Positions 3,688-56,722 of a stretch of 64,000 nt of DNA are shown here, in pieces; the first letter of the stretch is position 1, and each line of letters opens with the position of its first letter. A model generated the notes under the pieces. It saw only the letters and a program-made list of their open reading frames with translations, was not told the DNA's origin and searched no databases. Source of the stretch: Anaerolineae bacterium (GTDB taxonomy: Bacteria; Chloroflexota; Anaerolineae; B4-G1; SLSP01); the NCBI GenBank assembly GCA_049975525.1, contig JBNGCW010000001.1, forward strand, positions 12,472 through 76,471. The letters run 5' to 3'. A program made the translations under genes and the position numbers.

Positions 3688-3739
3688 GGATCACCGCTTT
3701 CCTTTTCCTTTTCTTTTTGCGTAAGCATGATTGACTCCG

Positions 3740-3866
3740 CTGAAAAAAGGTCCTAAAAATCGGATTTTTAGCAAAACGCCCCCCTATATCTAGTGGTTTT
3801 GACCGCGAATTTTCCCGCATGTAGTGGCGAGTTCCGGAAAAATCCGATTTTTCCCACCTTTTTCAG
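3740..3866. repeat. MITE-like ~127-bp element, copy A, with ~30-nt terminal inverted repeats
   Basis: Left end ctgaaaaaaggtcctaaaaatcggatttttagc; right end ggaaaaatccgatttttcccacctttttcag is its near reverse complement. Each arm carries a 14-nt palindrome AAAAATCSGATTTTT. A near-identical arm recurs at 33045. Confidence 0.45.
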
Positions 3867-4368
3867 GTGAGTCAAGTATACTCTAGAGGAAACCGGGGGC
3901 AAAATGAAAGGGCCGACTGCACTCAGGGAACCTGCTTCCGCCTGGCCTTTGGTCCGCTTTTTCATCCGCCGCAGGCCAGGCCCGCGACCATCACCTCTGT
4001 ACCGGCCACCGCCACTTTTTCATATGTTCCCCTTAACGCCATGTTCCCTCCAAATGATACCCTAACATAGAATTGTAGAGAAAATATGGAGATCCGATGG
4101 AGAGTCTGTTTTTCTTGGGAAACCGGAGAAAGCTCTGGGCTGCTGGGCTGCCTGGGCATGACTCGGCAATGAATCCCCCACAGGAGTCTCTTGCCAAAAT
4201 GCGTAGTTTTGGTATAGTAGGGATTGACATCGTGCTTTCCTTTAACGCCCCTCGGTGCCGCTCCATTGAGGGACGTTAACCCAAGGGTAACGAAAAAGCA
4301 ATGTCGTGGGGAGCGTTGTCCTTTATAATTAGGATAAAATATTCTTTGAACCTATAAGGAGGTTTAGT

Positions 4369-32966: not shown

Positions 32967-33043
32967 GGGGTGCTCCTTTTGGGGTGTAAGGGTTTATCAT
33001 TCTCCAGGTGCTACGTGCTTTCGAACCGGCAAATGAGGACTCT

Positions 33044-33169
33044 ATGAAAAAAGGTCTAAGAAATCGGATTTTTAGCTGACCATACTCTACCTTTGCTGAC
33101 TTTGGTCATGAGAAACCCACCTGTAGTATCAAGTCGTAAAAAACCCGATTTCTGCCGGTTATTTTTGTA
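33044..33169. repeat. MITE-like element, copy B
   Basis: Left arm tgaaaaaaggtctaagaaatcggatttttagc matches copy A at 3740 in 28 of 31 positions. Right arm gtaaaaaacccgatttctgcc...tttttgtag is the inverted counterpart. Total length ~126 bp, equal to copy A. Confidence 0.4.
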
Positions 33170-33343
33170 GAACCAATGAGAAACGTCAAAACCGTACTGT
33201 TTTCATAGGTGCGTTGCGCCTCTGGATCGAAAGCGACAATGTGCTGCCACAACGGTGTTGCGCCTTAGCGAAGGTCGTGTATGATGAGAACAATTCTATG
33301 TACATTTAGGGCCTTGTCAACGGGCAGGCCAAGGAGGTTTGGG

Positions 33344-53040: not shown

Positions 53041-53997
53041 TCAGGATGTTGCCGGTGGGGGGAGTGTGGCGTAGATGCGCGCCCGGGCGATCTTGCCCCG
53101 CGGTGGGCCGACGCGGGTGAGCTTGCGGCGCACCACCTCCCGCGCGAAGAGGGCGCAGCGCATCGGAGGATTGCCGTCCAGCAGCGCCACCAGAAAACCG
53201 GCCCAGAAAGCATCGCCCGCGCCTGTTGCATCCACCACCTTCACCGCCGCGGCGGGGATGTGGGTGATGTTCTCCGCTTGGGAGAGCAGGATGCCGTCTC
53301 GTCCCATGGTGAAGACGACCAGCTCCGGCCCCATGGCGTGGTAGCGGGCGATGTAGGCCTCCGGCGTCTCCCCCGGGCCGAAGAGGCGCTCCGCATCGTC
53401 CAGTGAGGGCTTGGTCAGGCGGACGTAGCGGAAAAGTCCTCTGAGCACGGCCAGCGCTTCCTCACGGTCGGGCCAGACGGGGGGATTGTAGTTGGGGTCC
53501 AACGAAATCAGTTTGCCCTGGGCGTGCGCCAGGCGAAAGGCCTTGGCGATGGCCGAGCGCGCCGGTTCCCGCGAGAGCGCGAAGGTCGAGGCGTGGACGA
53601 TGCGCGCCCGGCCGATGATCGCCGCGTCGATCTCGTCCGGCGAGAGGCGGTAATCGGCCTGACGCAGCGCCAGAGAGTCGGCGGTGCCCGGCGTGCGCGT
53701 GATGAAGATGGTCGTGGTGTACACCGCCGGGTCCATGATCAGCGCCTCGGTGCTGACGCCGGCTTCCGCCAGTTCCGCCTTGAGAAAGTGGCCGAAGTCG
53801 TCGGCGCCGGTCTTGGAGACGAGCGCCGCCCGCTTGCCCAGCGCCGCGACGTAGCGGGCCAGGTTGGCGGGCGAGCCGCCCTGGTAGCGTGCAAAGTGCC
53901 GCGCGTCGCGTATCCGCTCCACTTCCTCGGTGGAGATCATGTCGACGACGGTCTCGCCGATGGCCAGCAGGTCCAGGTCGCCCTCGGGGATCTCCAT
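53041..53997 (-). CDS. PfkB-family carbohydrate kinase (fructokinase / ketohexokinase-like)
   Basis: N-terminal GG motif (YQGGSPANLA) and C-terminal DATGAGDAF anion-hole motif. Confidence 0.8.
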   Translation of the reverse strand: MEIPEGDLDLLAIGETVVDMISTEEVERIRDARHFARYQGGSPANLARYVAALGKRAALVSKTGADDFGHFLKAELAEAGVSTEALIMDPAVYTTTIFITRTPGTADSLALRQADYRLSPDEIDAAIIGRARIVHASTFALSREPARSAIAKAFRLAHAQGKLISLDPNYNPPVWPDREEALAVLRGLFRYVRLTKPSLDDAERLFGPGETPEAYIARYHAMGPELVVFTMGRDGILLSQAENITHIPAAAVKVVDATGAGDAFWAGFLVALLDGNPPMRCALFAREVVRRKLTRVGPPRGKIARARIYATLPPPATS

Positions 53998-54003
53998 GGG
54001 CGC

Positions 54004-55140
54004 CTACCCTGCTGATGGCTTGTTGAGGAGGTCGCGCAGGCGGCGGGCCACCTCCTCAGGCGTGCCCTGACAGATGTAAAGCCCCAGGTGCTCCAGGCCG
54101 CCGATCTCCTGGGTGTAGGGCAGGAACTCGAAGTAGAGCCCCGCGCCTGGCCCATTGTGGGTCACGATATTGTAGGCGATCTCCCGCCCGATGGACGGCA
54201 TGACGGCGCGGATAGCGCGGATGGCGTCGTGCCAGCCCTCTGCCACCGCTGTGATCTCGTCAGCGTCGAGTTCGTGCAGATACCGCTTGCGCACGTCCTT
54301 CAGCACCAGCAGCATATCGTAGGGCCGCCGCATGAAGTAGGGGACCAGGAGCGTCGCGGGGCCGTAGTCGTCTACCCGCAGGGAAGCGGGGTTTTCGCGC
54401 AGCATGTAGGCCGCGAAGGTCTCCCCGTGGGCCTGAGCGAAGCGCCAGTTATCCAGCAGGCGCCGGGGGATCAGGTTGCTCAGCGCGATCTGCTGGTGCC
54501 CGTGGATCAGGGAGCCGCCGACCAGGTGCCCGTAGTTCTTGATGATGGAGACGAAGACCGGCGCGGCAGTGGGATTGTGCGGCGAGGGGGGCAGCCCCTC
54601 CGCCCCTTGCTCCAGCAGCGTTTTCTCCAGCGCCGCCAGCCGCTGCATGACGACGACGCGGTCGGCCTGGGGCATGTTGTGCCAATCTCTGTCGTGGTGC
54701 GACGAGGTCCACTGGAGCAGGTGCAGACCGGCGGCCGGCCCCGGCGCGGTGGCAGCCGGCGACGGCGGCGTCTCCTGCAGATCGGGGTAGAGCACGGGGT
54801 AGAGGTTCTTGTTGATGAAGGTCACGCCCTCGCTCAGCGGCGCGACGTCGAGGATGCCCGTGGTCTTCCCCTGGCAGACCACGCACGCGCGCTCCGGCGG
54901 CTCGGGCGGTGCCTTCTCGTCGGGCCGATTGTCGTGGGGGCGCCGCGCACGGGCCGCGTTGAAGACGATGCGCTCGCCGTTGCGCGGATCGATCTGAAAG
55001 ACGCCGTCGGGCCGGAAATCGGCCAGTCCCGGCTCCTCCCGCACGGACTGCGCGAGTTGCTCGAAGGAGAGCGCGGTGACGTCACCTGCTTCGATGAGAG
55101 CGGTAAGCTGTTCAGATTCAAGCCGTTGATCAGATGACAC
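54004..55140 (-). CDS. GalT-like HIT-superfamily nucleotidyltransferase (galactose-1-phosphate uridylyltransferase-like)
   Basis: CVVCQG zinc-knuckle-like motif and HGHQQ (HxHxQ) HIT-like motif. GTG start 55140 with GGGAGGA RBS. Confidence 0.45.
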   Translation of the reverse strand: MSSDQRLESEQLTALIEAGDVTALSFEQLAQSVREEPGLADFRPDGVFQIDPRNGERIVFNAARARRPHDNRPDEKAPPEPPERACVVCQGKTTGILDVAPLSEGVTFINKNLYPVLYPDLQETPPSPAATAPGPAAGLHLLQWTSSHHDRDWHNMPQADRVVVMQRLAALEKTLLEQGAEGLPPSPHNPTAAPVFVSIIKNYGHLVGGSLIHGHQQIALSNLIPRRLLDNWRFAQAHGETFAAYMLRENPASLRVDDYGPATLLVPYFMRRPYDMLLVLKDVRKRYLHELDADEITAVAEGWHDAIRAIRAVMPSIGREIAYNIVTHNGPGAGLYFEFLPYTQEIGGLEHLGLYICQGTPEEVARRLRDLLNKPSAG

Positions 55141-55197
55141 GTTTTATCCTCCCGTGACAGCGAATTGACGGGATTCAATGGATGCCGCCATCAGATG

Positions 55198-55376
55198 CAA
55201 AAAATCCGTTACATCCGTTCAGTATTCTGAGAGGTGCGACGCACTTAAGAATGCAAATCCTACTGCATTCTCATGAGCGTCGTAAGAAGCCTGTGGCTCT
55301 CGTGGATTTGAGCTCGAAAGTGCGTTGCACCTGTCGTCTGCTCACAGGACTAAACGATTACAAAATCCGTTACATC
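55198..55376. repeat. structured intergenic element: 17-nt direct repeats AAAATCCGTTACATC flanking a 15-bp long-range inverted repeat and an inner perfect hairpin
   Basis: Direct repeats at ~55198-55216 and 55360-55376. aggtgcgacgcactt (55232-46) pairs with aagtgcgttgcacct (55318-32). Inner hairpin gaatgca-aatcctac-tgcattc (55249-70). Confidence 0.45.
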
Positions 55377-56722
55377 TTCATGGCTTCCAGAAACGCCGGC
55401 ACCTGCTTCGACCACGTGAAGTAGGGCACGGTGATCTCCAAAGCCCGACGGCCCATCCTACGTGATAAAGCCTGATCCGTCAAGAGGCGCGTGAGGGCGG
55501 CCGCGAAACCGGCGACGTCGTCGGCCTGCACCACGATGGCACCTTCGCCCCGGCGCAAGGGGTGATCGCTGTCGGGCACCTCCACGCTCTCGACCTCCTC
55601 TCCCAGCAGGTACTCCGTGGCGAAGGGCACCCGGTGGCTGGCGATGACGGGCACGCCCGTCGCCGCCGCCTCCTGGGCCGACATGCCGAAGCCCTCCATC
55701 ACCGAGGGCGTGCAGTAGATGTCGGTGACGGCGTAGACCTTAGGCAGCCGCTGGGGGATGGAGCCCACGACGGCGACGTCGTGCTCCAGGCCGCGCGCGC
55801 GGATCAGCGCCCGCAGCTCCTCGGCCAGAGGCTGCCGTGGGTCGATGGCGACGACGAGCAGGCTCTCCGGCACCTCCGCGTGGGCGCGCGCGAAGGCCTC
55901 GATGAGCACGTCCTTGCGCTTGGTCGTATCGGTGCGGCTGATCTCGGTGACGATCTTGCGGCGACGCACTTCCTCCGCTGGGAGGCCCGCCCGCTCGCCC
56001 AGGAAGGCCCAGATGGGGTCGCCAGCGTCGATCTCGCGGGGATGGTAGCGGTCGGTGTCGACGCAGGGCGGTAAGAAGAGATCGGGGCCGTCGTAGCCGT
56101 AATCTTCGCACAGCGATTGGCGGATGGTGGAGGAGGTGGCGACGACGCCGTCCACCGCCGCGACCAGCTCGCGCTCCATGGCGATGCGCGCGTCGATGCG
56201 CAGCTCGCTCCATCGTTCGGGCGCCACGTTGCGCTTTTTGACGGCGCCCAGCGAGTGCGGGATCCAGGCGTGGAGCGCAGGCGTCGACCGGCGCCGATTG
56301 TAACGCACGCCCAGCGCCGCGCCGTCCCAGTAGTGGGAAAGGATCAGATCCACCGGCGTTTTTTCTAACCCCAGCGTCTCGTCCAGTTCGGTCGTCAGGT
56401 GTGGCAGCCGCTCCGCCATCTCCTCCTTGCGGACGAAGGCGGCGAGGCCGTCCTGGAGATAGAGGAGGCGTTGGAAGTCGTCGCGGTAATGAAACCCGCG
56501 CCGCAGCTCGTGGGTGAGGGGATGCGCGTAGCCTCCGCGATTCACAATCGTGATCTTGAAGCCCTGCTGCGCCAGTTCCGCCGTGAGCCGGTTGACGAAG
56601 ACGTTCTGTCCGCCGGTGTCGGGCAGTCCAGGCTTGACCTCCCACTGGTGGATCCCGTGGTTGGTGATCATCAGCACGTGCGGGCGGGAGGACAGCCGGA
56701 AACGCGTCGCACTTTTCGCCAT
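55370..56722 (-). CDS. family-4 glycosyltransferase, sucrose-phosphate-synthase-like
   Basis: MITNHGIHQWEVKPGLPDTGGQNVFVNRLTAELAQQG matches the SPS / sucrose-synthase GT-B N-terminal motif; C-terminal half is GT4-like. Confidence 0.65.
   Translation of the reverse strand: MAKSATRFRLSSRPHVLMITNHGIHQWEVKPGLPDTGGQNVFVNRLTAELAQQGFKITIVNRGGYAHPLTHELRRGFHYRDDFQRLLYLQDGLAAFVRKEEMAERLPHLTTELDETLGLEKTPVDLILSHYWDGAALGVRYNRRRSTPALHAWIPHSLGAVKKRNVAPERWSELRIDARIAMERELVAAVDGVVATSSTIRQSLCEDYGYDGPDLFLPPCVDTDRYHPREIDAGDPIWAFLGERAGLPAEEVRRRKIVTEISRTDTTKRKDVLIEAFARAHAEVPESLLVVAIDPRQPLAEELRALIRARGLEHDVAVVGSIPQRLPKVYAVTDIYCTPSVMEGFGMSAQEAAATGVPVIASHRVPFATEYLLGEEVESVEVPDSDHPLRRGEGAIVVQADDVAGFAAALTRLLTDQALSRRMGRRALEITVPYFTWSKQVPAFLEAMKM

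Follow-up and report, generated by a model that had tools for sequence, protein, structure and literature searches.

A repeat-flanked, structured segment behind a GT4 glycosyltransferase gene of an Anaerolineae bacterium is very probably one copy of a non-autonomous MITE family with 8-bp target duplications

In the window (the whole 64-kb stretch of DNA that was analysed), a block of genes on the minus strand encodes an ABC sugar transporter, a GT4 glycosyltransferase, a GalT-like protein and a PfkB kinase, and the gap between the GT4 and GalT-like genes is 229 nt long. The initial annotation had drawn attention to a repeat-flanked, highly structured segment in this gap (55198-55376), lying among tightly packed genes of one direction, and both the segment and its co-directional setting were confirmed. 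The question raised by this locus is therefore what such a segment is doing there: whether it is a member of a small mobile-element family, an attenuator or riboswitch-like leader for the genes that follow, or a small RNA. The features of the locus from which the question starts are the following, in window coordinates.

55370-56722, minus strand: GT4 glycosyltransferase gene, with the element directly 3' of it
54004-55140, minus strand: GalT-like gene, 70 nt downstream of the element
53041-53997: PfkB kinase gene, after the GalT-like gene
55141-55200, minus strand: putative original spacer and ribosome-binding region of the GalT-like gene, alignable to the 69-nt spacer of the related locus L004
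55201-55215 and 55362-55376: direct repeat AAAATCCGTTACATC, with exactly two matches in the 64-kb window
55362-55376, minus strand: upstream copy of the direct repeat in gene sense, GATGTAACGGATTTT, which includes the GT4 stop codon TAA (55370-55372)
55232-55246 with 55318-55332: long-range inverted repeat, AGGTGCGACGCACTT with AAGTGCGTTGCACCT, 14 of 15 positions paired
55248-55271, minus strand: central hairpin of 8 perfect base pairs with an 8-nt loop, AGAATGCA (55248-55255) with TGCATTCT (55264-55271)

For the GalT-like protein (54004-55140), no Pfam match was obtained at E <= 0.001. Some of its homologues in JGI are named galactose-1-phosphate uridylyltransferase, and one of them carries PF01087. 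The protein is common in Chloroflexota, where its gene adjoins GT4 and PfkB genes. By its sequence, the source belongs to an Anaerolineae (Chloroflexota) population with records from metagenomes only.

The repeats and the fold were largely as first described, with some differences in detail. The flanking direct repeat is present, but it is exact over 15 nt, and the 17 nt previously given for it are reached only with one mismatch tolerated. The two copies of AAAATCCGTTACATC are separated by 146 nt, and none of 100 dinucleotide-preserving shuffles of the window contained this sequence twice or more. The inverted repeat had been given as 15 bp with one G-U pair; 14 of the 15 positions do pair, but the odd position is a G-U in the plus-strand transcript only and an A.C mismatch on the mRNA-sense (minus) strand. 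The central hairpin is perfect, as had been stated, with eight pairs and not seven. The high degree of structure was borne out by folding of the spacer RNA (245 nt), which gave -84.2 kcal/mol with a z-score of -4.2, and none of 200 shuffles folded equally well. A strong fold is, in any case, expected of any inverted-repeat element.

To place the segment in its genomic context, the locus can be compared with those of three relatives (L004, L005 and L006), whose GalT-like proteins are 83-88% identical to that of the window. In all three, the gene order is the same and the insert is missing, with GT4/GalT-like spacers of 69 nt, 109 nt and 113 nt, respectively, compared with 229 nt in the window. 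The L004 spacer is alignable to the window on either side of the insert. L004 comes from the MAG Anaerolineae bacterium F17_49 (DAOTUH01, GCA_034437255.1), which has the empty site here and copies of the element elsewhere. On these alignments, the segment is an insertion relative to the orthologous loci. The insertion is fixed in the population of the window, the locus including the insert being 100% identical in three independent Logan assemblies. The 3' end of the GT4 gene is also different, as the protein ends in ..LEAMKM* in the window versus ..LEAIEKSTD*, ..MKAIKSVD* and ..LEDIESAD* in relatives, and the last GT4 codons (window 55370-55390) have been remodelled in the insertion-carrying lineage.

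The GT4/GalT-like spacers of L005 (L005:295-403) and L006 (L006:1243-1355) have structured content of their own, which is unrelated in sequence. In both, an outer stem, GAGGGTCA...TGACCCTC, lies directly beside the ribosome-binding site, accompanied by long inner stems. Insertions of structured sequence seem to hit this spacer with particular frequency.

Relatives of the insert were then found by blastn, which gave 17 full-length copies with 82-90% identity when the insert was used as the query and 33 full-length copies in 30 loci when representatives of six subfamilies were used. Of these 33 copies, 29, on 26 contigs, are in MAG F17_49 (GCA_034437255.1), a minimum for this MAG. When the copies were aligned, there were sharp identity boundaries at GTAATCGTTTAG... 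(GTAA...) and ...CTAAACGGATAC (...GGATAC), and the flanks were unrelated among copies. With these boundaries, the window copy can be divided as follows.

55211-55361, minus strand: probable MITE copy of 151 nt, GTAATCGTTTAG...ACTGAACGGATGT, with bounds taken from an alignment of 17 copies of the family
55341-55361, minus strand: left terminal inverted repeat (TIR) GTAATCGTTTAGTCCTGTGAG, upstream in gene sense, conserved at the ends of all copies
55211-55233, minus strand: right TIR CTCTCAGAATACTGAACGGATGT, for which the family consensus is CTCTCAAAATACTAAACGGATAC
55316-55333, minus strand: left subterminal arm CAGGTGCAACGCACTTTC, invariant in 17/17 subfamily-A copies
55229-55246, minus strand: right subterminal arm AAGTGCGTCGCACCTCTC, base-paired to the left arm apart from a single A.C mismatch in mRNA sense
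55362-55371, minus strand: putative in-register target duplication of 10 nt, AACGGATTTT, adjoining the element
55201-55215, minus strand: downstream direct repeat, of which 55201-55210 would be target duplication outside the element and 55211-55215 overlap its right tip

Compared by blastn, the window copy and the consensus of subfamily A are 88.6% identical, and subfamily-A copies in MAG F17_49 are 94-97% identical to their own consensus. The TIRs of the family, GTAAKCGTTTAG... and ...CTAAACGGATAC, are imperfect and ~20 nt long, GTAATCGTTTAGT.. being matched in the element by the reverse complement GTATCCGTTTAGT.., and the ends are conserved in 33 copies. Subfamilies A-F have ~50 nt in common at each end, made up of the TIR, a short linker and the arm CAGGTGCAACGCACTTTC or its partner, while the middles of ~70 nt are unrelated and interchangeable. 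Subfamilies B, C and D start with GTAAGCGTTTAG (some D copies with GTAAGTG), E and F start with GTAACC, and subfamily A, to which the window copy belongs, starts with GTAATCGTTTAG, where GTAATCG has one mismatch to GTAAGCG. The central hairpin is particular to the window copy and L116, and family-wide it is paired in only 71% of cells. The left-arm 18-mer was matched in GTDB species-representative genomes (at least 117 stretches) and the right-arm 18-mer in metagenomes (63 stretches); among the matches listed, nearly all of those with a name were Anaerolineae or Chloroflexota MAGs.

The flanks of the copies carry the mark of insertion. Comparing the 8 nt on the two sides of each copy, 14 of ~21 unique copies were identical at all eight positions and 3 more at seven of the eight, compared with a mean identity of 2.1/8 in a control with the right flank shifted by 3 nt. 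The longest exact flanking repeat was 8-9 nt in most copies. All copies examined for their location (28/28) were intergenic, and those between co-directional genes were in the sense orientation in ~10 cases and antisense in 7. In the window, the sole ORF overlapping the element (55182-55424, plus strand, 80 aa) had no Pfam match, and the element is predicted to be without coding capacity.

The alignments thus delineate a multi-copy family with TIRs, conserved ~50-nt ends and 8-bp target duplications, and the segment is very probably one copy of this ~150-nt non-autonomous MITE, inserted just after the GT4 stop codon. The small mobile-element family that the initial annotation had considered as one of its possibilities is therefore the one that agrees with the data, the segment being absent from orthologous loci and having at least 33 full-length relatives elsewhere with TIRs and 8-bp duplications. 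MITEs are a well-known kind of element, and no description of this particular family was found; in the sole search made for one, on Anaerolineae combined with MITEs, no paper was found.

Other copies of the repeat had been expected to be a useful check. None that is clear exists elsewhere in the 64-kb window, and many exist in related genomes. In the window, blastn-short and a pattern search found no further copies, and sensitive blastn with the six subfamily representatives gave a single weak match near 33,005, perhaps to a degenerate relative. The stretch concerned (window 32985-33230) could be an old degenerate relative, GTAAGGGTTTA..CAGGTGCTACGTGCTTTCGAA ... AGGTGCGTTGCGCCTCT, detected by weak blastn matches (E ~0.1-0.3), with the other MITE type of the window, described next, nested within it.

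A different MITE-like family is present in the window at 3735-3880 and 33040-33170, with the ends CTGAAAAAAGGT..AAAAATCGGATTTTT and their inverse, and CTGAAAAAAGGT-like ends also occur in the flanks of L052 and L092. The segment had been thought to share the core AAAATCCG with the arms of these elements (~3735-3880 and ~33040-33170). This kinship fails because AAAATCCG sits in the duplicated target DNA, outside the element, and the ends of the other elements are different. A relation to the 'AAAATCGGATTTT' elements elsewhere in the window was likewise rejected on account of their different ends. In MAG F17_49, an element of ~200 nt is nested in one of the MITE copies (L061:2183-2386), with inverted ends CAGGGAGTCCG... 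/ ...CGGACTCCCTG and an apparent 5-nt duplication, CAGGT, and may represent a third family of small mobile elements in this MAG.

As the MITE is non-autonomous, the next question is which transposase could have moved it. No IS family other than IS66 is known to us to combine end sequences of this kind with an 8-bp duplication. IS66 elements have TIRs of 20-30 bp starting with GTAAGCG and characteristic 8-bp direct repeats (PMC11946415), and an 8-bp direct repeat is also described for ISDge4 of the same family (PMC12898284). Like IS66, IS679 and ISDge4, the family of the window has TIRs of ~20 nt, which start with GTAAGCG (subfamilies B-D) or GTAATCG (the window's), and an 8-bp target duplication across the family, with 10-15 nt in the window copy itself. 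Unlike them, the window element is only ~150 nt long without a transposase gene, and its host is a member of the Anaerolineae (Chloroflexota), whereas IS66 members are mostly found in Proteobacteria, with some in Bacteroidetes/Chlorobi and Firmicutes (PMC11946415).

Neither the ~1.2 Mb of loci nor the window yielded an autonomous element or an IS66-type transposase having these ends, and a scan of the loci for TIR-like 12-mers spaced 1-3 kb apart gave no full-length IS. When ORFs of at least 120 aa within 2.5 kb of 365 motif sites were clustered, ABC ATPases, histidine kinases, response regulators, Ser/Thr kinases, SDRs and the like recurred; transposases were not among the recurrent ORFs, although a single-copy gene would be easily missed in this way. 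An IS66-family enzyme is the most likely parent transposase, an assignment based on the end sequence and the duplication length.

From the IS66-type ends together with the 8-bp duplication, we infer that the element is mobilised in trans by an IS66-family DDE transposase. Such a transposase would bind the inverted repeats and join the ends of the element to a target cut with an 8-bp stagger, and repair of the gaps at the staggered cut would result in the target duplication. The direct repeat flanking the window element would then represent the target duplication, 10 nt in register; it would extend to 15 nt here since the 5 nt at the end of the element are identical to the DNA on the left side of the target. 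Under a simple duplication, the pre-insertion site would read ...GAAGATGTAACGGATTTTTTGCAT..., and the exact empty site would be expected as ...GAAGATGTAACGGATTTT joined straight to TTGCATCTG.

The window copy is nevertheless unusual at its right end. Its tip reads GGATGT where the consensus has GGATAC, so that the last 5 nt are off-consensus (GATGT vs GATAC), and these 5 nt are part of the 15-nt direct repeat. Outside the tip, 10 nt (AACGGATTTT) are duplicated in register, compared with 8 in the family. A similar situation is seen in the closest relative, L116, which is 90% identical, has the tip GAATTT instead of GGATAC and is flanked by a 14-nt repeat (L116:6060-6240). In both copies, each substitution in the tip gives a match to the left flank and the repeats run 5-7 nt into the right tip, compared with repeats of 7-10 nt in all other copies. 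A long target duplication as the normal state of the family, of which the 15-nt repeat would be an example, was considered and rejected, as the family value is 8 bp. Conversely, a plain 8-bp staggered insertion does not explain the repeat of the window copy or that of L116.

The target itself could be relevant here. It is an array of AACGGAT/ATCCGTT units, which resemble the tip AAACGGATAC; degenerate short repeats of this type are present in window 55141-55200, and the entire 69 nt of the L004 spacer (L004:2915-3000) consist of small AACGGAT(T)/ATCCGTT palindromes in five units. Arrays of the AACGGAT type flank 5 of 28 MITE copies, with examples at L016:3961-4050, L061:2100-2149 and 2509-2560, L069:7500-7593 and L099:519-560. 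The duplication in L099 is the same 8-mer, AACGGATT, as the window target, in what are two independent insertions, and the density of CGGAT/ATCCG is 5.8 per kb in the flanks of copies versus 2.3 per kb in the background. Right tip and target together, TGAACGGATGTAACGG, resemble the ancestral 3' end of GT4 in L004, TCAACGGATTAAACGG, and the exact history of the junction is therefore ambiguous. The long repeats of the window copy and L116 may reflect a preference for tip-like targets, subsequent conversion of one repeat copy by the other, or a variant mode of insertion.

The last of these leads to a rival explanation, in which the window copy arrived by a route other than standard 8-bp transposition, either through a transposase that duplicates ~15 bp or through homologous or illegitimate recombination between AACGGAT-type repeats and a similar element tip. 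This could account for exact repeats of 15 nt (window) and 14 nt (L116) that reach into the right tip, and it would suit a target within a tip-like array (AAACGGATAC), the recurrence of the identical 8-mer AACGGATT in L099 and the remodelled C-terminus of GT4. However, there are two such cases only, and both the window copy (10 nt) and L116 (7/8 nt) still fit an in-register duplication with chance or converted matches in the tip. As the remaining family has clean 8-bp duplications, we regard another route as distinctly unlikely.

The inner arms raise a different issue, because dozens of Anaerolineae/Chloroflexota MAGs also have the arm motif AGGTGCAACGCACTTTC (16-18 nt) on its own, with no outer repeats around it. 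In 180 loci, 128 convergent arm pairs were counted, of which 66 are perfect hairpins with loops of <=8 nt (e.g. CAGGTGCAACGCACTTTCGAAAGTGCGTTGCACCTG) and 45 are doublets with lineage-specific spacers of 41-75 nt. Examples are the bare hairpins of L017, L021, L025, L028, L063 and L010 and the doublets of L019, L036, L038 and L060, and in L067 and L179 the arms form tandem arrays of alternating orientation. The free-standing forms have no target duplication, and many of them are located directly after stop codons. The motif was also present in a few contigs binned as Bathyarchaeota, Sideroxyarcus and Uhrbacteria, probably due to mis-binning. Viral contigs gave one match for the arm 17-mer and zero for the TIR pattern.

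In their form as short perfect palindromes, inverted doublets with variable spacers and alternating arrays in intergenic DNA, and in having no target duplication, the free-standing arms are like REP, REPIN and BIME sequences (PMC3337134, PMC3733652). The segment could thus be seen as an element of the REPIN/REP type, for whose movement a HUH tyrosine (RAYT-like) transposase, encoded by a single-copy gene, would read the inner arms (AGGTGCAACGCACTTTC / GAAAGTGCGTTGCACCT), the outer repeats being incidental. Unlike REP and REPIN elements, however, the window element and its family carry outer inverted repeats and 8-bp target duplications, and we know of no duplications of such a kind from HUH single-strand transposition. 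A REP is recognised by a GTAG or CGTC tetranucleotide at one end of the palindrome (PMC3733652), and the arm units, (C)AGGTGCAACGCACTTTC, are without such a terminal tag. No Y1/HUH transposase was recurrent within 2.5 kb of the 365 motif sites, a sample in which a single-copy gene may well escape notice, and no associated RAYT was found in the sampled loci. REP families are usually restricted to one species or genus, whereas the arm motif spans many Anaerolineae lineages. Movement as a REPIN is, on balance, very unlikely.

Within the preferred reading as a MITE, the arms could be subterminal transposase-binding sites of a widespread IS, or a separate repeat system that was captured by the MITE. 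That they are a stand-alone repeat system, almost letter-perfect across many Anaerolineae lineages, is rather unlikely. If it were true, the window element would be a chimera, with a DDE transposon shell around a palindrome that is read by another protein, and the 14-15-nt repeats of the window copy and L116 might reflect a second mode of insertion at tip-like AACGGAT arrays.

The functions at the RNA level that had been suggested for the segment fared less well. A cis-regulatory RNA, i.e. an attenuator or riboswitch-like leader controlling the GalT-like and PfkB genes, would be well placed in this co-directional block, where the GalT-like start follows after 70 nt, with a fold of z = -4.2, and the spacers of relatives are structured at the same position, though unrelated in sequence. 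However, none of the orthologous loci examined has the element, and in its other copies the same sequence adjoins unrelated genes in both orientations. An Rfam search with the element gave no relevant match at gathering thresholds or at E <= 10, and no promoter-like or terminator-like sites were found in the element on either strand. Covariance across related copies, which could have supported a conserved structure, did not exceed that of shuffles: with RNAalifold on 17 copies, a compensatory change was seen in 0/40 predicted pairs, and explicit pair counting on the structure of the initial annotation gave a covariation score of 0.050 versus 0.048 in shuffles, with 12 of the 14 arm pairs showing no variation at all. 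A leader function is therefore highly improbable. Just as improbable is a trans-acting small-RNA gene, possibly carried by the mobile element, for which one could cite the compact stable fold, the high copy number per genome and the invariance of the arms, but which would lack a promoter-like or terminator-like signal on either strand, covariation and an Rfam match, would have its ~70-nt middle swapped wholesale among subfamilies next to unrelated neighbours in both orientations, and is not needed for the copy number, as TIRs and target duplications account for it without any RNA function.

If the segment is a MITE copy, it is probably a passenger at this locus. Should the genes be co-transcribed, the mRNA would contain the element as a long hairpin, with possible effects on mRNA stability or on how GT4 and GalT-like expression are coupled; nothing points to selection of the element for an effect on the mRNA. 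A hairpin of ~150 nt in an apparently polycistronic sugar-gene transcript can still be of use as a natural test of the polarity effects of MITEs.

For annotation, a tempting false riboswitch or small-RNA candidate is removed. The repeat family is now defined by its ends, arms, 8-bp duplication and six subfamilies, and can be masked or tracked in Anaerolineae MAGs, the assemblies of which are broken by such repeats, and its presence or absence among close relatives can serve as a mark of recent transposition. A wider payoff, if any, would come from the class-wide inner palindrome, for which a transposase-binding site, a REP-like system or something else are the candidate causes.

To compare the family with known bacterial MITEs, it matches the general description of these elements (PMC3733652) and, in its behaviour, MITEPsy1 (PMC3189936). 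Like NEMIS/Correia, ERIC, RUP, Nezha and MITEPsy1, which are non-coding elements of 70-300 nt with TIRs of 15-30 nt, it is intergenic, often adjoins coding sequences and would form a robust hairpin when transcribed, and some genomes have many copies of it while close relatives have none. Its sequence, however, is unrelated to that of any of these five, and unlike in other bacterial MITEs, its ~50-nt ends hold a second, subterminal palindrome, which is also found free-standing in many genomes.
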